Shown here piece after piece: positions 3,273 to 46,441 of a stretch of DNA of 64,000 nt. Made by a program: the position numbers and the translations under genes. The DNA is taken from contig JBGSZX010000043.1 of the NCBI GenBank assembly GCA_041750195.1, forward strand, positions 77,650 through 141,649, in the 5' to 3' direction. Source of the DNA: Bdellovibrionota bacterium. Lineage in GTDB: Bacteria; Bdellovibrionota; UBA2428. The notes below the pieces were generated by a model that had not been told where the DNA came from, did not search any database, and saw nothing but the letters and a program-made list of their open reading frames with translations. The number at the start of each line of letters is the position of its first letter. Within the stretch, counting starts at the first letter, position 1.

Positions 3273-3673
3273 GATCTATTTCCCTCCAATATTTGAGGAA
3301 TATCATATTCGACCAAGGCAATAGAATCTTCGATGCGTTGACGTATTTTAAGTTCTTCAGAACTTGCGAACTTTTTCTGAAAACTTGGCTGCCGAAATAA
3401 TAATTTCGCTCGCCCAAGATATGATATCGCCGATTTTTCTTTTCCAGAATAAGCGCTCACAACAGCCGCAATTAAATATGATTGAATTCTACGCTCTGGA
3501 GACGCCTGTGGAGTAATTTCTATATTTAGTTCGGAAATCGCCTGAGCCACATCAAACAAGCCTTTTTTCCCTAGCTCATCAAGGCCCGCTAAAACGGGAT
3601 CTAAAGCTTGCGCGTAGGTACCCATCGAAAAAGAAAGCGACAAACCTAAGGCCACAAGATGCAAGAGCCTCAT
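3269..3673 (-). CDS. Hypothetical small periplasmic protein (134 aa) with a signal peptide
   Basis: N-terminal MRLLHLVALGLSLSFSMGTYAQA signal-like sequence. ATGA-type 4-bp overlaps on both sides. Confidence 0.5.
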   Translation of the reverse strand: MRLLHLVALGLSLSFSMGTYAQALDPVLAGLDELGKKGLFDVAQAISELNIEITPQASPERRIQSYLIAAVVSAYSGKEKSAISYLGRAKLLFRQPSFQKKFASSEELKIRQRIEDSIALVEYDIPQILEGNRS

Positions 3674-4308
3674 CTGACACCAACCTTATTGTCTTCGATT
3701 GACGTTAAAACCAAATCTGGCTCCGCAGAGCTACTCTGAGACCAGGGTGTTTTATTTTGGAGTGTCATGAGAATTTTTTTAGAATTTTTTCTATCAACTG
3801 CACCAATGGGAAGTTTGGCATTATAAAAAACTGTTTTTTTGCTACTAGCAAATGGATTAAGTGAATCGAGCTTTTCAACTTCAGCCTCTACGTACAGAAT
3901 TGAGACATCTTTTGATTGATATGGCAACCATACGGAGTACCACTTCAGCGCCCATTGCTCACCTTCTGGAATGCGCAAGTCCTGCTGAGCCTCGACACCA
4001 TCAATCGAAACCAGCTTCACAGACAGTGCCTTCAGCTTTTGCGATGGACGCTTAGACCAACGTAAGAAAATTCGACTTCCATGTTCAACACTAAAAATAA
4101 TTTTGGGAGAAGCTTGATTTGGGAGTCCAAAATTCTGGAGCATCTGACTTCTATGCCGTCTCAAATCGGTCTGTGCTCGCATGAATCTTTCGGATACAAA
4201 GTTCTGACTTAAGGAAAATGAAGCGGAGCTTAACAATGCCAGCATTCCTAATAGAAATTTTCTGAGCCTGCCAAGAGCAGACAACCTCCCGAACAATCTT
4301 TCGGACAT
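3670..4308 (-). CDS. Hypothetical signal-anchored or exported protein (212 aa)
   Basis: Has one N-terminal hydrophobic segment (LLGMLALLSSASFSLS). It starts 1 nt after the dacB stop. Confidence 0.5.
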   Translation of the reverse strand: MSERLFGRLSALGRLRKFLLGMLALLSSASFSLSQNFVSERFMRAQTDLRRHRSQMLQNFGLPNQASPKIIFSVEHGSRIFLRWSKRPSQKLKALSVKLVSIDGVEAQQDLRIPEGEQWALKWYSVWLPYQSKDVSILYVEAEVEKLDSLNPFASSKKTVFYNAKLPIGAVDRKNSKKILMTLQNKTPWSQSSSAEPDLVLTSIEDNKVGVR

Positions 4309-20702: not shown

Positions 20703-22295
20703 TTAAAAAATACTGTCTTCGACATCAACTTCTTCTTCAGAGTTAACAATCCAAAGGGTTCCGGTTCTTTGATCGCGGTCAATTAACAGCGCCTTAGCTT
20801 TCGCAGAATTTCCCACATTAATTGTAATCAGAGCTCCAGGACGAGGACCTACGCCAATCGATGGAAATCGAATTCCCATCAAACCATATTCGGCAGTATG
20901 GACTTCCGCGCCCTCCTGCAATGGAACCAACCTGGTTTGCTCTCGCTCTTCTGGACCAATCGTTTCTTCATGAATCGCCAGCGGAGTAATTCTAAACGAT
21001 CGGTTGACGATCAAATCTCCAGCCTGAACTTCTCGAAACGCTTTAACAACCGTGGCTCTATTGCCCTCAACCTTTAAAGTTCCCAACCAGTTCACACGAT
21101 AATAAGTCGAAAAATCAATATTAATGGTTTTGATTTTTACGATTGGAAATATCCCATCGGCCAAACTCGTCTTAAAGCTGTCGCCCTCTCGATAGAAAAT
21201 TTTCCCAGATGAATTAAATATTTTTGGAATCTCTCCAACACTATCTGGCTTGCTATATAACAAAAAATATTGAAAAGGGGGATGAGGCGCCTGAATCTGC
21301 ATCCGAAGAGTTGCATCAATAAACTCTAAAAGAGTTTTTTCTTTATCCATTTTTGTGAGGGGATAAAGCGCCACATTGCTCGCATCAGAAATATCAGACT
21401 TGTACGCTAGCTCCGGAGCGGAACCTGGATTTCCTGGTTTAAAATCCAATGTCATTCCGGTTGATATGATGTGTGGATTCGTAATCGATGCATTCAAGTG
21501 CCAAATTTTGGGCCATAAAAAGGGCGTTCCAAAAAGCCTCTCCGAAACTTTCCATAAGCTATCTCCCCGATGAACGTTGTATTCCTTGTCGACCATAGGC
21601 CCTGCCCATCGCACCCAGTTTGCATCACTCATCTGTGGCCTCAGTGGAACTCTCCAAAATTTATCTGAAGGAGGCAGCTGATTCCCGGGTTCATCAGACA
21701 AATCAGAACCAAGGCTTCCGGCCTGAAGCTGTTCGGCTTGCTCTAATCGTTTTTCTAAAGCTTGGATGTCGTCTGGCATAGCCATAGGATCTTCCATCAA
21801 ACCACTGCCATCTGAATTGCTGTCTTCCAAATTCGTCGGTTGTGCTAGCAACGGACTTGGAGCGACGGGCTGTTTTACCGCGGGGCTAACGACTTCCATT
21901 TGATCTTCTTCATCTAAATTTTCCGTTTGAGCGGAAGAAGATTCGGATTCCGAATCCGATTTAGCCTCTTTGGTATCGGCCATCTGATCAAACTCTTCTT
22001 CAAGTGCATCGTCACTAAGAGCTTCTTCTTCACTCGTGTCAGACTTTGTGTCGGCCTTCGCCTCCAGATTACTTGCACTTTCACCCAATTCTTCCTCGGC
22101 TTCAGATACTTCTTCTTGTGCCTCTGCCATATTCGAATTTTTCTGGGCCTCTTCAGTCGCTGAAGAGGCAGAATCCTCGGATGATTCTAGATCTGGAAAA
22201 TCCTCAAACGGCGATTCTTCGTCTTGAGCCAAGCCACGGCCTGAGAATGCAAGGGCTAAGACAAAAATAGATAATTTGAGAAATTTAGTTTTCAA
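20703..22295 (-). CDS. Secreted protein with an acidic low-complexity N-terminal region and a LysM peptidoglycan-binding domain
   Basis: Signal peptide present. Long D/E/S-rich stretch. LysM-like YNVHRGDSLWKVSERLFGTPFLWPKIWHLNASITNPHIISTGMTLDF. Confidence 0.6.
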   Translation of the reverse strand: MKTKFLKLSIFVLALAFSGRGLAQDEESPFEDFPDLESSEDSASSATEEAQKNSNMAEAQEEVSEAEEELGESASNLEAKADTKSDTSEEEALSDDALEEEFDQMADTKEAKSDSESESSSAQTENLDEEDQMEVVSPAVKQPVAPSPLLAQPTNLEDSNSDGSGLMEDPMAMPDDIQALEKRLEQAEQLQAGSLGSDLSDEPGNQLPPSDKFWRVPLRPQMSDANWVRWAGPMVDKEYNVHRGDSLWKVSERLFGTPFLWPKIWHLNASITNPHIISTGMTLDFKPGNPGSAPELAYKSDISDASNVALYPLTKMDKEKTLLEFIDATLRMQIQAPHPPFQYFLLYSKPDSVGEIPKIFNSSGKIFYREGDSFKTSLADGIFPIVKIKTINIDFSTYYRVNWLGTLKVEGNRATVVKAFREVQAGDLIVNRSFRITPLAIHEETIGPEEREQTRLVPLQEGAEVHTAEYGLMGIRFPSIGVGPRPGALITINVGNSAKAKALLIDRDQRTGTLWIVNSEEEVDVEDSIF

Positions 22296-38511: not shown

Positions 38512-39786
38512 TCAGTGTAAAGTTTTTGACCCTTTGCCTTTTTTAGGGGGCTTTGCGGACTTTTGAGGGCCTTTTTTCTTTTTTTTCTCCAAAAAAAGTA
38601 AGGTTTCAATATGGGCTGTTTGAGGGAACATATCGAAGGGTTCGATAGATTTAATCACGTATCCCTGCTCCGCCAATATTTTTGCATCTCTAGCCAAAGT
38701 TTTGGGATTGCATGACACGTAGATTATTTTTTTCGCGGGTTTTTTTAGAATGAGCTCAAGCACTTCCTTCTCGCACCCCTTACGAGGAGGATTTAGAACC
38801 ACCCAATCGGGCAAACCCCATTCCTTATGAAAAATATTTACGCCTTCGAGTGCGTCTGCACACAGATGCAGAACATTATTAATTTTATTTCTTCGAGCAG
38901 CGGTCACACCCTCTAAAGCTGCAGGTCCAACTTCTTCAACCGACAAAACATTTTCAGTTTTAGATGCCAAGTGCATTCCCATTAGCCCCAAACCACCATA
39001 CAAATCTAGCCCCTGCGAAAAAGGTCCTTTGCCAACAATTTCTTTCACTCTCAAATATAGTTTTGAAGCTTGTCCGCTGTTAACTTGCAAAAAAGAAAGT
39101 GGGCCAATTGATACACGCAATGCCCCCATCTGCTCGGTAAGCTCTGCATTTTTACTCAAAAAGCGATTGGCTTCACCTAACAATACATTTCCAGGATCGT
39201 CGTTAATATTTTGGACAATAGCGACAATTTCTTTTCCAAATTTTTCTTTCAATTCATCGACCAACTTCGACAAGCCAGGAACAGTTTTTCGCGTCGTCAC
39301 AAAGACACACATGACTTTTTTATCTCTAAACGAATAGCGAACTATTAGATACCTTAAAGCAGCACCGGAAAAATCATCGTTTGCCACAGGAACACTTTGT
39401 AGAATGAGGTGTTTTTTGATAAATGCAGAAACTTCATTGATAAAAGGGGCATGTACCGAGCAGTGGGGAATGTCCACAACCTGATGCGTTCCCGCCTTAT
39501 AAATTCCCATCTTCAGCGTTTCTTCGGACTTGCTTGATCCCTGGATTATCCATTTAGCCTTATTTCGATAGCCCAACGTTTTAGGAGAAGGGACGCATTT
39601 TTTCATTTTTTCTTTGATTTGAGATTCAGAAAATCCCGCATTCACAAAAGCATCTAAAACCATAATTTCTTTTTGTCTTAGCTGCTCTTTATAGGATTGT
39701 TGGATCAAAGGGCACCCGCTGCATTCCTGCCAGTGGGGACAGGGTATTTTTGATTCGTCTTTCTCCATAAATTTCTGCTTCACCAA
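38512..39786 (-). CDS. Class I SAM-dependent RNA (uracil-5)-methyltransferase, RlmD/RumA family, with a lysine-rich C-terminal tail
   Basis: N-terminal Cys cluster CPHWQECSGCPL (4Fe-4S) and a C-terminal methyltransferase fold. The tail is KKKKKGPQKSAKPPKKGKGSK. Confidence 0.65.
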   Translation of the reverse strand: MVKQKFMEKDESKIPCPHWQECSGCPLIQQSYKEQLRQKEIMVLDAFVNAGFSESQIKEKMKKCVPSPKTLGYRNKAKWIIQGSSKSEETLKMGIYKAGTHQVVDIPHCSVHAPFINEVSAFIKKHLILQSVPVANDDFSGAALRYLIVRYSFRDKKVMCVFVTTRKTVPGLSKLVDELKEKFGKEIVAIVQNINDDPGNVLLGEANRFLSKNAELTEQMGALRVSIGPLSFLQVNSGQASKLYLRVKEIVGKGPFSQGLDLYGGLGLMGMHLASKTENVLSVEEVGPAALEGVTAARRNKINNVLHLCADALEGVNIFHKEWGLPDWVVLNPPRKGCEKEVLELILKKPAKKIIYVSCNPKTLARDAKILAEQGYVIKSIEPFDMFPQTAHIETLLFLEKKKKKGPQKSAKPPKKGKGSKTLH

Positions 39787-39801
39787 AAGGGATTTTCCCC
39801 T

Positions 39802-40518
39802 TTACTTGGCAGCGCCTCCATCACTCGATCCAGACGCCGATTTTCCACCTTCAGCTTCCGCCCCACCATTTGTTGGAAACGGTGAACCGCCCTCTGAGTC
39901 TCCCCTACCACATTTGAGATCCTGTAAATATATAGGAGGAGTTTGGCCCGTATAGTAAACAATAAACGTTGATTGCCCTGTGAATCCCGGCCTAAATTCC
40001 ACACGGTTTCCATTTTCTGCGTAAAAAATCATGGAGGCTCGATCGATTAAATTGATATAATTTTCGACTTGGATGATCTTCCGCTTTCCACCTTCATCAA
40101 CAAACCTGTTGTAATGATTTTCCTTGGTCACAATAGATTCTACTCGCCCATCATGAAGTGTCCGACGAAAGACAAATGAAATATATCCCTCTTTATCCAT
40201 CACCTGATGAATTTCCCATTCAGAAAAGCTTTTCTGAATATTGAGCCTCATTTTGTCGCGAGCCAACAATCTAGATTTTCGATTTGTTTTCCTCGAGATC
40301 CAAGGAATCTGATCAATAACAAGGCATGATGCGATCTGATTGAGCGTAAGCCCTGTTTTAAAAATAGGCTTGCTGACAACCTTCTGCCTAACAGCTGTAG
40401 AACTCCCAACATCCTCATAGAACCCTGATCCGTCTTTTTTCTTTTTTTGATCTAATGATTGCGCCGAAACTGCACTCGTCGACATGGCAAAAAATAATAT
40501 GACAAATAGGGTCCGCAT
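39802..40518 (-). CDS. Hypothetical periplasmic protein with a Gly/Ser-rich C-terminus
   Basis: Signal peptide MRTLFVILFFAMSTSAVSA. No recognised motif. Confidence 0.5.
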   Translation of the reverse strand: MRTLFVILFFAMSTSAVSAQSLDQKKKKDGSGFYEDVGSSTAVRQKVVSKPIFKTGLTLNQIASCLVIDQIPWISRKTNRKSRLLARDKMRLNIQKSFSEWEIHQVMDKEGYISFVFRRTLHDGRVESIVTKENHYNRFVDEGGKRKIIQVENYINLIDRASMIFYAENGNRVEFRPGFTGQSTFIVYYTGQTPPIYLQDLKCGRGDSEGGSPFPTNGGAEAEGGKSASGSSDGGAAK

Positions 40519-40532
40519 TAGCTTAAATTGTA

Positions 40533-41738
40533 TCAGAACAAATCTCTAAGAACACGGTTCCGAGCCATGAGCCTTTGACGGGCCTTATATTCACGATGCC
40601 GGCTTCGGCCACCGATGGCCTCGACATAGGATTCTTTATCCAAAATCTGGACCTCGAACGGGTAATAAAAGGTTCGCTTTTCCCTGAGCGTAATAGGGAC
40701 TTGCTTTAACGCTTCAGCAACACCTTTTTCGTGAATAATTTGAGACTTTAAATCGGTCCAAAACATGAATGTCGGATCGGGAGCGACAATTAACTGACGG
40801 CAGGTAAATTGAATGGCTCTATACCACGATGAAGAGAATCTATTTTTAATACTCTTCAATGAAACCGCAGTTTCATTCTCCATCTTTCGAAGAGCATAAT
40901 GAAACGATGCCTCGTCAAGATCATTAGCCTCTATTTGATGCCCCATGTCCTCGACAAAATTACGAAAAGTTTCGGTAGGAATAAGCGTATTCAGAGAACG
41001 TTGGGGATGAATATTGGTTGGCGAAACCAGGCCAGTTTCGAAGAGAACCCGAACTAACTGAAAAGCCTCCCAACGGGTTTCAGTTACAAATCTAAAGCCG
41101 ATACGATCATAGATAGCTTCAACCATGGTCTTGGGCTTTGAAAGCAACTTTACCAAGGTCGAATTGCGATCTTTTCTTTCTTTTTTAAGGTAGCGAACTA
41201 GCTTTACGCTATTTTTACCCTGGCCAAGGGTCCATCTTCTTTCGTCAGCAACGGGTTGAATCATGCGATCAAATCTCTGAAAAATTTGCTCTCTCGCATA
41301 GCGAAAATTCTCAAACCTCACATCGTTGTCCAGATGAGAAATAATATGCATAACCCTAAGCACAGCACAGCTCCAGCGACTTGCAGCCGTGGGCGTGTTC
41401 TTTGAAGCCTCCTGTAGGAGCCTAAGAATATCACTTTGGTTGCCCCTGGTTAAAAAGGATTCAGGAATGTCTTCGCCATCATTCAACAAAGCATTTCTTA
41501 AAAAGGAGACTGCCTCAAAATAAATTTTCCAAATTTCTTCTCGTTCAATGGGAGACTCCGGATCATAACCGTAGGACTCCAAAAACTGAGCAGCCTCTTG
41601 CTTTGAGTGAATGTTTAATTTTTGAACGTCGACGTACGAACGACCTTCGGTCGCAGCATAAAGAGCATCCCAATCAAAATTGATCTGATCCAAAATTACC
41701 AGGCGTCTCCGTCGTCGGAACCTCGACGCGAAGACCAA
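40533..41738 (-). CDS. Hypothetical 401-aa cytoplasmic protein; possible nucleotidyltransferase (RelA/SpoT-like) fold, low confidence
   Basis: YDRIGFRFV, LVRVLFETGLVSP and RSLNTLI segments loosely resemble the D-x-x-G-x-R strand, the hG-h-P strand and the SLHT motifs of RSH synthetase domains. A possible TTG start at 41691-41693 would remove the 43-bp overlap with the upstream gene. Confidence 0.5.
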   Translation of the reverse strand: MVFASRFRRRRRLVILDQINFDWDALYAATEGRSYVDVQKLNIHSKQEAAQFLESYGYDPESPIEREEIWKIYFEAVSFLRNALLNDGEDIPESFLTRGNQSDILRLLQEASKNTPTAASRWSCAVLRVMHIISHLDNDVRFENFRYAREQIFQRFDRMIQPVADERRWTLGQGKNSVKLVRYLKKERKDRNSTLVKLLSKPKTMVEAIYDRIGFRFVTETRWEAFQLVRVLFETGLVSPTNIHPQRSLNTLIPTETFRNFVEDMGHQIEANDLDEASFHYALRKMENETAVSLKSIKNRFSSSWYRAIQFTCRQLIVAPDPTFMFWTDLKSQIIHEKGVAEALKQVPITLREKRTFYYPFEVQILDKESYVEAIGGRSRHREYKARQRLMARNRVLRDLF

Positions 41739-42415
41739 TCTTCATCGTCCTCACTCCACTCGTCGGAATCATCAAAATCGGTATCGCTATCTTCTTCGTC
41801 CTCAGTCGCCTCAATACCTGTTGGGTCGTCTTTCCACCAAGGAGGAGGTCCTTCGGAGACTTCTTCTTCAACCTCTTCTTCCCCTTCAAATTCAATCTTC
41901 GCTTCATCTTCTTCATCGTCATCTTCGCTATCGCCCTCGTCGGCAAATGAATCAAAGCGGCTGGCACTAAACGAATCATCATCAAGATCTTCGTCATCAT
42001 CATAAATACTTTTTGAAGAAGCCGATCGGCTAGGGCCCTCACCAAACTTCTCGCCATCATTGTCAAAGTCTTCTAGGTCTTCGATCTCATCCAATTCGTC
42101 ATCGTCCCCCGACAAAATAGCTTTTGCTTTGGACGGCTTTAGCGGAGCCGGTTTTGAACTCTCCGAATTTTTTAGAGCAGGCTTCTTGGATACTTTACTA
42201 GACGTTGAAGCACTTGCTTTTTTGTCTGTGGATTTTGCCACAGTTTTAGCTCCAGATTTAGCTCCAGATTTTGCCGCAGCTTTAACTGACGTTTTAGCAG
42301 CAGGCTTTGTCGCCGCCTTTTTCGCTGCAGTTTTTGTAGTTTTCTTTACAGCTTTTTTCGCCGTCTTATTCTTTGTAGCCATTCCAGGTCCTTTCACCTT
42401 TGTAATGTCCCTCAC
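41696..42415 (-). CDS. Dipolar low-complexity protein: Lys/Ala/Thr-rich histone-H1-like N-terminal region followed by a long Asp/Glu-rich acidic tail
   Basis: N-terminus AKKAVKKTTKTAAKKAATKPAAKTSVKAAAKSGAKSGAKTVAKS. C-terminus about 150 aa rich in D/E (DDDEDLDDDSF...EDEEDSDTDFDDSDEW). Coding on this strand is supported by a long ORF in a compositionally biased region. Confidence 0.5.
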   Translation of the reverse strand: MRDITKVKGPGMATKNKTAKKAVKKTTKTAAKKAATKPAAKTSVKAAAKSGAKSGAKTVAKSTDKKASASTSSKVSKKPALKNSESSKPAPLKPSKAKAILSGDDDELDEIEDLEDFDNDGEKFGEGPSRSASSKSIYDDDEDLDDDSFSASRFDSFADEGDSEDDDEEDEAKIEFEGEEEVEEEVSEGPPPWWKDDPTGIEATEDEEDSDTDFDDSDEWSEDDEDWSSRRGSDDGDAW

Positions 42416-42498
42416 TTGATCTATGCTTAAGGAACAAACTCGGGTTAAAAGGCTCCCTTCGGAGTGTCAAGCGAGTAGATTGAGCAATAGAAAGAAAA

Positions 42499-43239
42499 AT
42501 GAATAGAATCCTCCTTAAGAGTCCAGACCTAGCCATTGTAAACAAACCGGCGGACTGTCACAGCAATGAATGGTATGAGGGTCTACTATTAGACGAAAAA
42601 TCGAACACGTCCCCCAAGGAAACATGCGGCGCGTTAGGCTTTGCCACCTGGCTTCCCGCACACAGGCTCGACTTTAAAACTAGCGGCTGTTTGCTGGTTT
42701 GCTCGCCCCAGACCGTCGATAATTACACTCAGCTTTTTAGATCTCATAGCCAAGACATTCAAAAAATTTATTTAGCAGACACCGGGGCCGCGCTAGCCGA
42801 CCAACTACTTGGTAGCCACGAAGGATTTATTGTAAGTCGCTACAGACGATCAAAATCCGTTCGCTTTCTTTATGGCGATGACCCCATCCTTTCGAGGAAG
42901 TGGCACTCTAAGCAAACGGTTGAACACGAAATCATTCCATGCCCAGCGACAAAGGAAGAACTTGAAATCTTAGGACTCAGTCCACACACTGTGGGCGTTC
43001 GACTTCTTACGGGGGCCAGACATCAAATACGAGCTTTTTTTGCGAGCCACAACATGCCTATCACAAATGATCCCATCTATGGGTTAGCGCAAGATGAAGA
43101 ATCTGAAAGTGGCGAAGATGGCCTTGTCGTCGAAAGTGACGACGGCGCCCATTTAACTCTAGGCCTTCACGCCTGGAGCTTAGAATTTACAGACCCTATT
43201 TCGAAAGAAAAAATATACGCCACCGCAAAGACACGTTAA
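42499..43239 (+). CDS. RluA-family pseudouridine synthase
   Basis: Catalytic HRLDFKTSGCLLV motif and C-terminal GARHQIRAFFASHNMPITNDPIYG. Confidence 0.75.
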   Translation: MNRILLKSPDLAIVNKPADCHSNEWYEGLLLDEKSNTSPKETCGALGFATWLPAHRLDFKTSGCLLVCSPQTVDNYTQLFRSHSQDIQKIYLADTGAALADQLLGSHEGFIVSRYRRSKSVRFLYGDDPILSRKWHSKQTVEHEIIPCPATKEELEILGLSPHTVGVRLLTGARHQIRAFFASHNMPITNDPIYGLAQDEESESGEDGLVVESDDGAHLTLGLHAWSLEFTDPISKEKIYATAKTR

Positions 43240-43288
43240 GCCCAATTGCAACTGGCTATCATTTTATGTCTATTTATTTTGAAATCTA

Positions 43289-43792
43289 TCAAAGTTCGTG
43301 AGTTGAAGATCCATCGGGATGGCTCTCTTTGCCATTTTTAGAACATCCAAATAACTCATACTGACGGTACCGCATTTGGCTTTGGCTCGCGACTGCCTCA
43401 AGCGTTTTTATAATTGTTTGTTGTTCCGAAAAATCGATCGCCAAATTACGCAACTCCGCAGATTCTGATTGAACGTCGGTTAAATCTGCCGCTTCATATT
43501 CACCAATGTATTTTTCAACCAGCTCAGATTCAGTAATTTTTTCAATCTTTATAGCAACGCCCTTTGCGAGCAGTCTTGCCCGAAGAACTTCTAATTTTTT
43601 ACGCGCTTTCTCTATCTCATGAGTTATCTTTTCGTACTTTTCAAGTTCCAAATTATACTGGCTCAGCATCGAATCTCTCATTGCATCCGCCGATTTACAC
43701 TTTAGATCAATTTCTTTCATTTCGACTGCGTTTGAGGGCAGAGAAAGTGTAAAAGTTAACAAACAAATAGCGACTCTAAGAATATGCTTCAT
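43289..43792 (-). CDS. Hypothetical secreted coiled-coil protein
   Basis: Signal peptide present. Heptad-like E/K/L-rich sequence. Confidence 0.45.
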   Translation of the reverse strand: MKHILRVAICLLTFTLSLPSNAVEMKEIDLKCKSADAMRDSMLSQYNLELEKYEKITHEIEKARKKLEVLRARLLAKGVAIKIEKITESELVEKYIGEYEAADLTDVQSESAELRNLAIDFSEQQTIIKTLEAVASQSQMRYRQYELFGCSKNGKESHPDGSSTHEL

Positions 43793-43834
43793 ATGACAAA
43801 TTCTGCATCATATAAAAACAAAGAACAACTACTA

Positions 43835-46441
43835 TTACGCCAAGGCCTTTGACTTCATCACCAAAGATTTGACGCCCCCCTCGGAAGTCCCCACGTCAAC
43901 GCTAATGCGATCTCCGTCATGAAAGTCTCCGGTAAGGAGCTTTTTCGACAATGGAACTTGGAGCTGTTTGTAGACCACTCGCTTCAAAGGCCTCGCACCA
44001 AAGATAGGGTCAAACCCGGCTTCCGCAAGAAGATCTTTGGCTTCGGCACTAAGCTCAACAGCGAGATCACGATCTTTTAGAATTTTGTTGAGATCTTGAA
44101 CCTGAATGTCCACGATTCTTCTAATAAGCTCCTTATCAAGTGATCGAAATACAATCACATCGTCGATACGGTTGATAAACTCTGGACGCATATGTTGCCT
44201 CAAGCGTTCAATCAATTTTTGTTGCAAAACTTCCCGGCCTGCATCGATGTTTTCAAGAATCAAATCTGATCCAATATTACTGGTCATGATAATCACACAA
44301 TTTCTAAAATCAACTAAGCGACCTTGACCATCCGTAAGGCGGCCATCATCCAAAATCTGCAAGAGCACATTCAAAACATCCGGATGTGCTTTTTCTATTT
44401 CATCCAAAAGCACAACTGAGTAAGGTCTTCTTCGAACAGCTTCCGTTAATTGGCCGCCTTCTTCAAAGCCAACATATCCCGGAGGAGCTCCAATAAAGCG
44501 CGATACAGAATGTTTTTCCATATACTCACTCATGTCCATCCGAAGCATGCTTTGTTCGTCATCAAATAAAAATTCCGCAAGCGCTTTTGCCGTTTCTGTT
44601 TTTCCAACTCCCGTTGGTCCCAAGAACAAAAAAGACCCAATAGGTTTACTTGGATCTTTAAGCCCACTTCTTGCGAGCCTCACCGCATCGGCCACAGCCG
44701 TCAGAGCCTCTTCTTGCCCAACGACTCGTTCGCGCAACTTATCTTCTAGCTGTAAAAGCTTTTCATTCTCACCACGAATCAATTTTGAGACCGGAACTCC
44801 GGTCCATCTAGAGACAACCCCAGCAATATCTTCCGCGTCGACTTCTTCTTTTAAAACTCTTTGATCGACCTGGATGTCCTGAAGCTCCTTCTGAGCTAGA
44901 GCAATCGTTTTTTTAAGTTCAGGCAATTTTCCATACTTGATTTCAGCAGCATGCTGCAAGTCTGCGTTTCGCTCTGATCGTTCGAGATCCGCACTCAGTC
45001 GCTCTGACTCTTCTTTTAAATTTCTAAGCTTAAGAATTTGCTCTTTCTCTTTAAGCCAATGGGTTTTTAAAACATCGACCTCCGCCTTTTGAGTGGCAAT
45101 CCGCCCCTCAATCTCCTTAAGTCTTTTCAAGCTGTCGACATCGGTTTCTTTTTTTAGAGCCTCTTGCTCAACTTCAAGCTGAGTGAGTTCTCGAACTTTT
45201 TCATCAATAGCACTAGGCATGGAGTCAATTTCTATTCTTAGCTTTGCGGCCGACTCATCCATAAGGTCAATGGCCTTGTCTGGTAAAAAGCGATCGCTGA
45301 TGTATCGATTAGAAAGTTCCGCAGCTGCAACCAGTGCCGAATCTTGAATTCGAACTCCATGATGGACTTCATATTTTTCTTTAAGTCCCCTAAGAATTGA
45401 AATGGTGTCTTCGACACTCGGCTCTCCAACAAAAACCTGTTGAAATCTTCGCTCAAGAGCTGGATCTTTTTCTACATATTTTTTGTACTCATCAAGTGTC
45501 GTGGCCCCAATGCAACGAAGCTCACCCCTTGCAAGCGCCGGCTTTAACAAGTTTCCAGCATCCATAGCACCGTCAGATTTTCCGGCGCCAATCAGGGTGT
45601 GGAGCTCATCAATAAACAAAATGATTTCGCCTTGCGATTCTTGAACCTCTTTGAGAAATGATTTTAATCTCTCCTCAAACTCACCTCTATATTTTGCGCC
45701 GGCAACCATGGCCCCCAAATCTAGGGAACGTAGTTGTCTGTGCTTTAAACTTTCGGGGACATCTCCATTTATGATTCTCTGTGCAAGGCCCTCTGCAATC
45801 GCAGTCTTGCCCACTCCCGGCTCTCCAATAAGAACAGGATTATTTTTTGTTCTTCGCGATAAGACCTGAACCACTCTTCTGATTTCTTCATCACGTCCAA
45901 TGACGGGATCTAGCTTTCCCTCTGCGGCGAGCTTTGTGAGATCTTGCGAATATTTATCGAGAGCCCCATAGCCTTCTTCAGCCTGGGCGCTATGCGCTTT
46001 AGCCTTGCCGCCTCTCGCTTTAACAAAATTCCCTTTTAATTTTTCTAGGCTCCATCGAGGCCCTGTAAGCTGCGACGATATGGCATTATCTTGAGATAAA
46101 ATACCTAAAAATAAATGTTCAACAGTCACAACAGAATCGCCCATTTCAGTAGCGACATTTTCTGAAGTTTGCAAAACTCTTTGTAACTCAGCCGAGATTC
46201 CGACCCCGCCTCGTTGTCCAGAAACCGTGGGCAATTTTTTCTGCGCACTTATTGCTGCTGCTCTAAAATCTTGTAGCAGCGCCTGCTGCGTCAATACATT
46301 TACAACTGGCGATCCGCTATCTTCAACCAAAACCGTGGCCAAGTGTGCCGTTTCCAAAACTGGATTATTTTTTGACTCGGCAAGTTTCTGCGCCGTAGCC
46401 AAAGCCTTCTGAGCTAATTCTGTGTATCTTTCAAAGTTCAT
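43835..46441 (-). CDS. clpB: ATP-dependent chaperone ClpB
   Basis: Two AAA+ modules ([13 protein letters not shown] and [13 protein letters not shown] Walker A), a long coiled-coil middle domain and a Clp N-domain. 868 aa. Confidence 0.95.

Follow-up and report, generated by a model that had tools for sequence, protein, structure and literature searches.

What does a bacterial reading frame encode when its product begins as a lysine- and alanine-rich chain resembling the tail of histone H1 and ends as a long acidic stretch? This question is raised by a minus-strand open reading frame (ORF), 41696..42415, in a 64,000-nucleotide (nt) stretch of contig JBGSZX010000043.1 from a Bdellovibrionota bacterium; the whole stretch is referred to here as the window. 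A preliminary description, made from the letters of the window alone, had taken the ORF separately from its operon and proposed a nucleoid-associated protein with an autoinhibitory tail, or a chaperone or decoy for basic proteins. The comparisons presented here indicate that the ORF is a gene under purifying selection, that selection acts on a short tryptophan-containing acidic module at the C-terminus of its product, and that the gene lies directly upstream of one encoding a TIGR04562 protein with a predicted RelA/SpoT synthetase fold. We tentatively favor a disordered regulator or adaptor that acts with this downstream enzyme.

A genuine and conserved reading frame

As listed, the ORF opens with a GTG at 42415 and encodes 239 amino acids (aa). 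The true start is probably the ATG at 42382-42380, because a Shine-Dalgarno-like GAAAGGA, read from the sequence at 42389..42395 on the minus strand, lies 6 nt upstream and because relatives share an N-terminus at this point, all of them opening with M-[AP]-[TAS]-K-x-K in the alignment. The GTG is probably not used. The resulting coding sequence, 41696..42382 on the minus strand, specifies 228 aa and ends in a TAA stop at 41698-41696.

Of the six frames, this one alone stays open in every one of the 22 orthologous genes; the remaining five are interrupted in some orthologs but not in others. Within the two conserved motifs described below, change falls almost only at third codon positions, which vary in 12 of 14 codons of motif 1 and 9 of 10 codons of motif 2, compared with 5 first and 5 second positions in motif 1 and 0 and 2, respectively, in motif 2. 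Judged by this codon pattern, the frame is under purifying selection and the ORF is a genuine conserved gene. Two other ORFs over the same DNA, 42060-42419 on the plus strand and 41674-42066 on the minus strand, are compositional shadows, as the preliminary description had supposed, because only the target frame stays open throughout the orthologs and theirs are broken in some.

That the ORF might itself be a compositional artifact, a pseudogene, or a non-functional low-complexity frame is suggested by its low-complexity sequence, by the lack of a curated family match, and by an exact-sequence look-up in a collection of 15 billion proteins, in which neither the target protein (from either start) nor three shadow ORFs were found although the neighbor protein P0008 from the same contig (NCBI source) is present. 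However, the same architecture recurs in 33 relatives and the start context is conserved, and together with the frame and codon data these alignments exclude an artifact. The source annotation may instead have overlooked the gene or called it in another way. For annotation in general, the case shows clear purifying selection on a type of low-complexity ORF that gene callers and curators often distrust.

Composition and predicted disorder

The protein divides into a basic head (residues 1-87; 42122..42382, minus strand), a variable acidic middle rich in Asp, Glu, and Ser (residues 88-175; 41858..42121, minus strand), and a conserved C-terminal module of 53 aa (residues 176-228; 41699..41857, minus strand). 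The head is built of Lys, Ala, Ser, and Thr, with 26 lysines, no arginine, and a net charge of +24, and is the most basic stretch among the real reading frames of the window. Residues 1-100 have an isoelectric point (pI) of 10.3 and consist of 26% Lys, 21% Ala, 14% Ser, 10% Thr, and 5% Pro, in keeping with the AKK/AAK/TAK repeats and H1-tail-like composition noted at the outset. A weak 12-nt tandem array (42241-42303; 2.6-5 copies) encodes AKSG-type units within the head. The tail (residues 88-228, 141 aa) carries a net charge of -57, is 46% Asp plus Glu, and contains five tryptophans. Its acidity had been remarked on, and it in fact contains the 100-aa stretch with the most negative net charge in any of the six frames of the window (-46, versus -32 for the runner-up). 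The whole protein has a pI of 4.24, a net charge of -33, and a charged-residue fraction of 0.44, and its charge segregation (kappa ~0.45) far exceeds that of 30 shuffles (0.18 +/- 0.03).

AlphaFold2, run with the family alignment, predicts complete disorder. The predicted local distance difference test (pLDDT) score averages 48 and stays below 70 at every residue; it rises to 53-62 in residues 171-228 and nowhere else. The sole predicted secondary structure is one 3-residue helix. By these models, the target is an intrinsically disordered diblock polyampholyte with strong charge segregation.

Kinship with H1 or chlamydial Hc1, as the head had suggested, is not borne out. No family matched the protein in a Pfam-A scan at E<=0.1, which included the Hc1, HC2, Linker_histone, and CarD_CdnL_TRCF models, or in an NCBIfam scan, and a profile search of PDB sequences with the target family returned only chance low-complexity matches (E>1). 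PADLOC matched no defense or toxin-antitoxin model to either the target or the TIGR04562 protein. Because Pfam, NCBIfam, PADLOC, and PDB all lack a match, the target is, by sequence comparison, not an H1, Hc1, or Hc2 homolog. Neither a Pfam match nor a predicted folded domain corresponds to the winged-helix globular domain of H1 or to the N-terminal CarD_CdnL_TRCF domain with which CarD interacts with RNA polymerase. Residues 1-100 do resemble the Lys/Ala/Pro-rich tail of H1, a resemblance of composition only.

An N-terminal hydrophobic signal was not found in the target protein sequence, and type I secretion was considered without finding support. A central hydrophobic Ala/Val/Gly stretch present in some relatives (L006, L012, and L022) was rejected as a membrane anchor for the family, since the window protein and many other members lack it.

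A lineage-restricted family with a conserved C-terminal module

The preliminary description had suggested looking for similar lysine/alanine-repeat proteins with acidic tails in related genomes, and 33 relatives were found, every one in Bacteriovoracaceae or Bdellovibrionota. Seven relatives, 191-231 aa long, came from a word-indexed search of 5.8 billion clustered proteins, representing about 15 billion sequences; 18 loci, all in Bacteriovoracaceae or Bdellovibrionota metagenome-assembled genomes, came from a pattern scan of 185,579 species genomes; and only 11 matches, all short proteins, came from a HMMER profile search of 1.84 billion representatives. On this sampling of sequences, the family is small and lineage-restricted, confined to one predatory lineage of Bacteriovorax-type bacteria.

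All 22 full-length members have a Lys-only basic head of 70-103 residues with a net charge of +20 to +31, followed by an acidic region of 88-152 residues with a net charge of -32 to -60. Tryptophans occupy fixed positions, five in 21 of the 22 and four in the remaining member (L021). Of 33 aligned relatives, 30 end in Trp, two (L021 and P0131) in Tyr, and one (P0132) in Asp.

Conservation is distributed very unevenly along the chain. Identity to the window protein is 1-32% in the head (residues 1-90) and 6-26% in the middle (residues 91-175), where length differs by ~60 residues among members, and rises to 43-91% in the C-terminal module (residues 176-228). The module follows the consensus EG[PL]PxWWKxDPxGIE, then 10-14 acidic residues, [FVI]DDSDEW[ST]EDD(E)[DE]W, an acidic run, and a terminal W-COOH. 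In the window protein, motif 1 is EGPPPWWKDDPTGIE (residues 177-191; 41810..41854, minus strand), with G-P-P-x-W-W-K-x-D-P invariant in one alignment, and motif 2, recognized by alignment and codon variation, is FDDSDEWSEDDEDW (residues 203-216; 41735..41776, minus strand). The chain ends in W228 (41699..41701, minus strand), preceded by acidic residues. On the alignments, this Trp-containing acidic module of 53 aa is the part under selection, and an emphasis on the basic head is therefore misplaced, the head being the least conserved part.

The closest relative illustrates this pattern. In L008, whose enzyme neighbor is 85% identical to that of the window, the head of the target homolog differs, with KASNASA repeats, but its last 52 residues match the window protein almost exactly. 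The L008 head (3-110) contains at least three KASNASA units, where the window head has the AKSG units of its 12-nt array. The head evolves through short tandem repeats, suggesting that its length and charge, not its sequence, are under selection. In some divergent members the head is reduced to a few lysines and the module is retained, most clearly in P0135 (L026), with the same tendency in P0132 and P0136.

Linkage to the TIGR04562 gene

Viewing the ORF apart from its operon lost the most informative fact about it, namely its position directly upstream of a RelA/SpoT-fold gene. All 26 loci of the clade have the target gene directly in front of the TIGR04562 gene, on the same strand. The stop-to-start distance ranges from -7 to +57 nt, is <=18 nt in 15 of 18 loci, and is +2 nt in the window. 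Such spacing places the TIGR04562 ribosome-binding site inside the last codons of the target, and from this arrangement the two genes are probably translationally coupled.

Where homologs of the TIGR04562 enzyme are 41% and 45% identical, the upstream gene is retained; TIGR04552/TIGR04562 homologs at <=38% identity lie in other contexts (PgpA-RecA-AlaS or an ABM-domain gene) and have no such upstream gene. Wherever the locus is long enough, the gene order around the pair is fixed: ClpB and, farther on, a divergent RluA-like gene, then the target, TIGR04562, a secreted protein of 225-240 aa, a RumA-type methyltransferase, LptB, RpoN, HPF, and MetK.

The downstream enzyme

The partner gene occupies 40533..41693 on the minus strand and encodes 386 aa from a probable TTG start at 41693, 2 nt after the TAA of the target; this start was placed by comparison with L008. 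The public annotation (P0008) gives 401 aa from a TTG at 41738, with a 43-nt overlap with the target. The window enzyme scores 342 bits on NCBIfam TIGR04562 and falls below Pfam significance, and 28 of 42 aligned family members match Pfam RelA_SpoT (PF04607; best E-value 2.5e-7).

Several observations relate this family to the RelA/SpoT homolog (RSH) synthetases. Searched against the PDB, the family profile has two matches only, RelSeq and the small alarmone synthetase YwaC. The profile segments iyDriGlRf and PfEvQI align with FDLIAIR and PIEIQI(R) of RelSeq, its catalytic Asp and Glu motifs, so that the family shows the D-x-x-G-x-R and E-x-Q-I signatures of RSH synthetases together with their fold; D196, E347, and Q349 are invariant across 42 family sequences. 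The AlphaFold2 model of the enzyme has a pLDDT of 86.5, and its top 50 Foldseek matches are all (p)ppGpp synthetases. Alignment and model thus agree that the TIGR04562 protein has a RelA/SpoT synthetase fold with conserved catalytic Asp and Glu, over the only ~150 residues that are alignable to RSH synthetases. At its N-terminus the enzyme carries an additional helical domain of ~140 aa, in which H116 and H120 are invariant (LRVMHIISHLDND).

The partner-bearing clade of the enzyme family has extra conserved arginines (R83, R134, R167, R337, R367, R374, and R378), three of which lie in the C-terminal helix, and a mean net charge of +10.5 versus +3.3 in the other clade. This two-clade comparison is suggestive: the arginines are as expected had the enzyme acquired a binding face for acidic ligands.

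The TIGR04552/TIGR04562 family is conserved across Bdellovibrionota and Myxococcales. A literature search found no papers on TIGR04562 or on small alarmone synthetases in Bdellovibrio, and TIGR04552 appears in two passing mentions, in a Bdellovibrio experimental-evolution study and a Myxococcus transposon-sequencing preprint. One member of the family adjoins the Myxococcus gliding-motility cluster, and another was mutated in Bdellovibrio experimental evolution.

Possible functions of the target protein

With somewhat less than even confidence, we infer that the target is a disordered regulator or adaptor acting with the downstream RSH-fold TIGR04562 enzyme. Because its gene always lies directly in front of the enzyme gene, it more plausibly works with the enzyme than as a stand-alone histone-like protein. 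The strict linkage with short or overlapping spacing argues for this pairing, as does the phyletic pattern, in which distant enzyme homologs lack the target gene and have fewer of the conserved arginines. The C-terminal module, linear-motif-like within a freely diverging chain predicted to be disordered, has the look of a typical docking peptide, and it stays where the head has almost vanished. There is also a precedent, since RSH genes of the small alarmone synthetase type are known to be paired, in conserved bicistrons whose genes often overlap, with the gene of a small partner protein (PMC7229694).

We infer the following scheme for how the two proteins interact, which way the regulation runs, and what the head binds. 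The C-terminal acidic module would dock on the enzyme through four aromatic anchors (WW, DEW, EDW, and the terminal W-COOH), probably on an arginine-rich face specific to the partner-bearing enzyme clade. The Lys/Ala head may bind a polyanion non-specifically, with DNA, rRNA or the ribosome, and polyphosphate as candidates, and the long acidic tail would compete with that polyanion for the head. Depending on how far the head is occupied by polyanion, the target could in this way tether the nucleotide pyrophosphokinase-like enzyme, inhibit it, or switch it. If the pairing is true, this would be a bacterial protein, fully disordered and charge-segregated, whose short Trp-acidic docking motifs give it control over a RelA/SpoT-superfamily enzyme. 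The pair would then offer a handle on the function of the uncharacterized TIGR04552/TIGR04562 family and a non-toxin addition to the growing list of small-protein partners of alarmone synthetases. Its general impact is limited unless the mechanism proves transferable, because the family is small (11 cluster representatives in 1.84 billion proteins) and belongs to one predatory lineage.

Several observations weigh against this pairing. The target has a constant neighbor on its other side as well, the divergently transcribed gene for the RluA-like pseudouridine synthase, so adjacency alone does not single out the RSH-fold protein. The entire block from ClpB and the RluA-like gene through the target, TIGR04562, and the secreted protein to RumA, LptB, RpoN, and HPF is syntenic, and part of the linkage could therefore reflect vertical inheritance in one bacterial family. 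Moreover, the TIGR04562 protein of the window is only mildly basic (net +5, pI 8.97), and the arginine enrichment is a clade comparison confounded by phylogeny.

Three other readings bear on the same data. An unlikely one is a stand-alone nucleoid or chromatin protein, in which the head would compact DNA like an H1 tail or chlamydial Hc1, the tail would autoinhibit or tune it (as in HMGB1, the Hfq C-terminal tip, or the SSB tip), and the Trp module would bind another chromatin component. The head composition, its steady net charge in 22 members despite sequence turnover, the extreme charge segregation, and the full predicted disorder all fit such a protein, and the host lineage Bacteriovorax has been reported to have histones and unusual chromatin (PMC11789641). 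Yet the histone-related models find no match, conservation is lowest in the head, which some members have nearly lost, the overall negative charge disfavors DNA binding by the intact protein, and the strict coupling to the RSH-fold gene is left unexplained. The autoinhibitory tail of the preliminary description thus stands in part: an interaction between head and tail is physically plausible from the charge segregation, but the stand-alone nucleoid protein to which it was attached is not the best-supported reading. The same holds for its other proposal, a decoy for basic proteins. In the corresponding reading, which we consider improbable, the target is an acidic chaperone or decoy, or a ribosome-biogenesis factor unrelated to the enzyme, whose tail shields ribosomal proteins or histones while the head contacts rRNA. 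Aromatic-anchored acidic disordered regions do bind histones in eukaryotic chaperones such as FACT, and two neighbors, the divergent RluA-like pseudouridine synthase and the RumA-type methyltransferase, are rRNA-modification enzymes. However, we know of no dedicated bacterial chaperone of this kind, and the neighborhood argument is weaker than the same-strand coupling to TIGR04562, even in a lineage that has histones (PMC11789641).

The coupling to an RSH-fold gene also invites comparison with toxSAS toxin-antitoxin modules (PMC7229694), in which case the target would be a labile, disordered antitoxin that inhibits a toxic RSH enzyme, perhaps as a mimic of tRNA or another nucleic-acid substrate, and that might auto-repress through its basic head. 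The overlapping or closely spaced bicistron with the target gene upstream, present in all 26 loci, and the similarity of the enzyme fold to CapRel/Tas1 agree with this. A nucleic-acid-binding N-terminus joined to a disordered partner-binding C-terminus likewise resembles type II antitoxins. We nevertheless consider an antitoxin improbable. The distribution is neither sporadic nor mobile: every genome examined has the locus in a constant neighborhood of housekeeping genes, inherited vertically, with ClpB, the RluA-like gene, RumA, LptB, RpoN, and HPF in all long loci. Neither protein matches a defense or toxin-antitoxin model, the enzyme family is widespread without the target as partner, and a third conserved gene follows in the operon. 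Less probable still is a chromatin switch in histone-bearing Bacteriovoracaceae, in which a linker-histone-like polycation would be restrained by its own histone-chaperone-like Trp-acidic tail, the tail also serving as a docking site for the RelA/SpoT-fold pyrophosphokinase. If true, nucleoid compaction (e.g., in attack versus growth phase) would be mechanically coupled to alarmone-type nucleotide synthesis through one charge-segregated, possibly condensate-forming polypeptide.

Comparison with known systems

By analogy, the target would work most like the small partners of RSH enzymes in toxSAS modules and like acidic docking or autoinhibitory tails, while being a member of neither group. The toxSAS modules (FaRel, FaRel2, PhRel, and CapRel; Jimmy et al. 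2020, PMC7229694) share with the target locus a small-protein gene tightly coupled to, and often overlapping, a gene of RelA/SpoT synthetase fold, with the small protein expected to bind and control the enzyme. Unlike them, the target has no sequence relation to any known antitoxin, its partner, a 386-aa TIGR04562 protein, has an additional helical domain at the N-terminus, and its locus is inherited vertically among housekeeping genes and matches no defense model.

Among H1-like Lys/Ala-rich bacterial proteins (Hc1/Hc2, AlgP, and CarD), a low-complexity polycation of ~70-100 residues rich in Lys, Ala, Pro, and Ser is the shared feature. Such heads can bind polyphosphate granules, not DNA alone, as in Pseudomonas AlgP (PMC9239181), and some myxobacterial CarD proteins have an H1-like C-terminal region (PMC2919716); CarD, with an acidic region and an HMGA/H1-like one, likewise joins an acidic to a basic DNA-binding stretch. 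The target differs from these proteins in lacking a Hc1, HC2, or CarD_CdnL_TRCF match, in its order of basic then acidic, and in its net charge of -33; its conserved element, the acidic Trp module, is absent from them.

Acidic C-terminal docking or autoinhibitory tails are found in E. coli SSB (tip DDDIPF-COOH), in Hfq (acidic C-terminal tip), in HMGB1, and in the delta subunit of Bacillus RNA polymerase. As in these proteins, the acidic tail of the target is on the same chain as a basic, putatively nucleic-acid-binding part, with the same logic of competition between tail and polyanion. Its Asp/Glu run leads, in the manner of the SSB tip, to a terminal aromatic residue with a free carboxylate (...DDGDAW-COOH), an ending conserved in the family and with a putative docking role. 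SSB, Hfq, HMGB1, and delta have a folded nucleic-acid-binding domain, however, whereas the target is predicted to be wholly disordered; its tail far exceeds theirs in length and has four conserved Trp anchor positions, and there is no homology.

Disordered polyacidic segments with conserved aromatic anchors also bind very basic proteins in eukaryotes, as do the Spt16/Pob3 tails of FACT, ANP32E, and prothymosin-alpha with H1. The target has comparable aromatic-anchored polyacidic disorder in a histone-bearing lineage. The likeness to these histone chaperones is pure analogy, however, with no homology, and no histone gene was seen linked to the target locus.

Neighboring genes and other features of the window

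Directly after TIGR04562 in the window lies a gene for a 238-aa protein (p238; 39802-40518, minus strand), with a signal-peptide-like N-terminus and no Pfam or NCBIfam family. It is probably the third operon member, because it follows TIGR04562 directly in all related loci, at 26-86% identity. On the other side, the divergent RluA-like pseudouridine synthase gene (42499-43239, plus strand) encodes a protein above the Pfam PseudoU_synth_2 cut-off and far below every NCBIfam cut-off; it always adjoins the target gene, with which it shares an intergenic region of about 85-120 nt. A promoter and terminator scan gave counts at the level of shuffled controls, with no convincing minus-strand promoter in 42416-42498. 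A perfect TTGACA occurs at 42470-42465, but the -10 element 17 nt downstream is poor, and no promoter is claimed. An Rfam scan of 39500-44000 gave no match.

Some loci depart from the usual arrangement. In L026, from one divergent lineage, a familyless, Cys-containing ORF of 118 aa (3602-3958) is inserted between the acidic protein, which is 143 aa long and has almost lost its basic head, and the TIGR04562 gene. In the partner-less TIGR04552 clade, all four loci checked (L024, L025, L027, and L028) adjoin PgpA, with RecA-AlaS in L025 and L027. Three of the four (L025, L027, and L028) have the RSH-fold gene, an overlapping familyless gene of 391-410 aa, and then an iron-sulfur (ferredoxin-type) protein of ~650 aa. 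This gene order suggests that, in this clade, the enzyme family has a conserved set of other partners.

Second in acidity within the window, after the tail of the target, is a stretch at 21906-22205 (net -32 per 100 aa) in the N-terminal ~150-aa region of a 530-aa secreted protein (20703-22295, minus strand) that is unrelated to the target gene.

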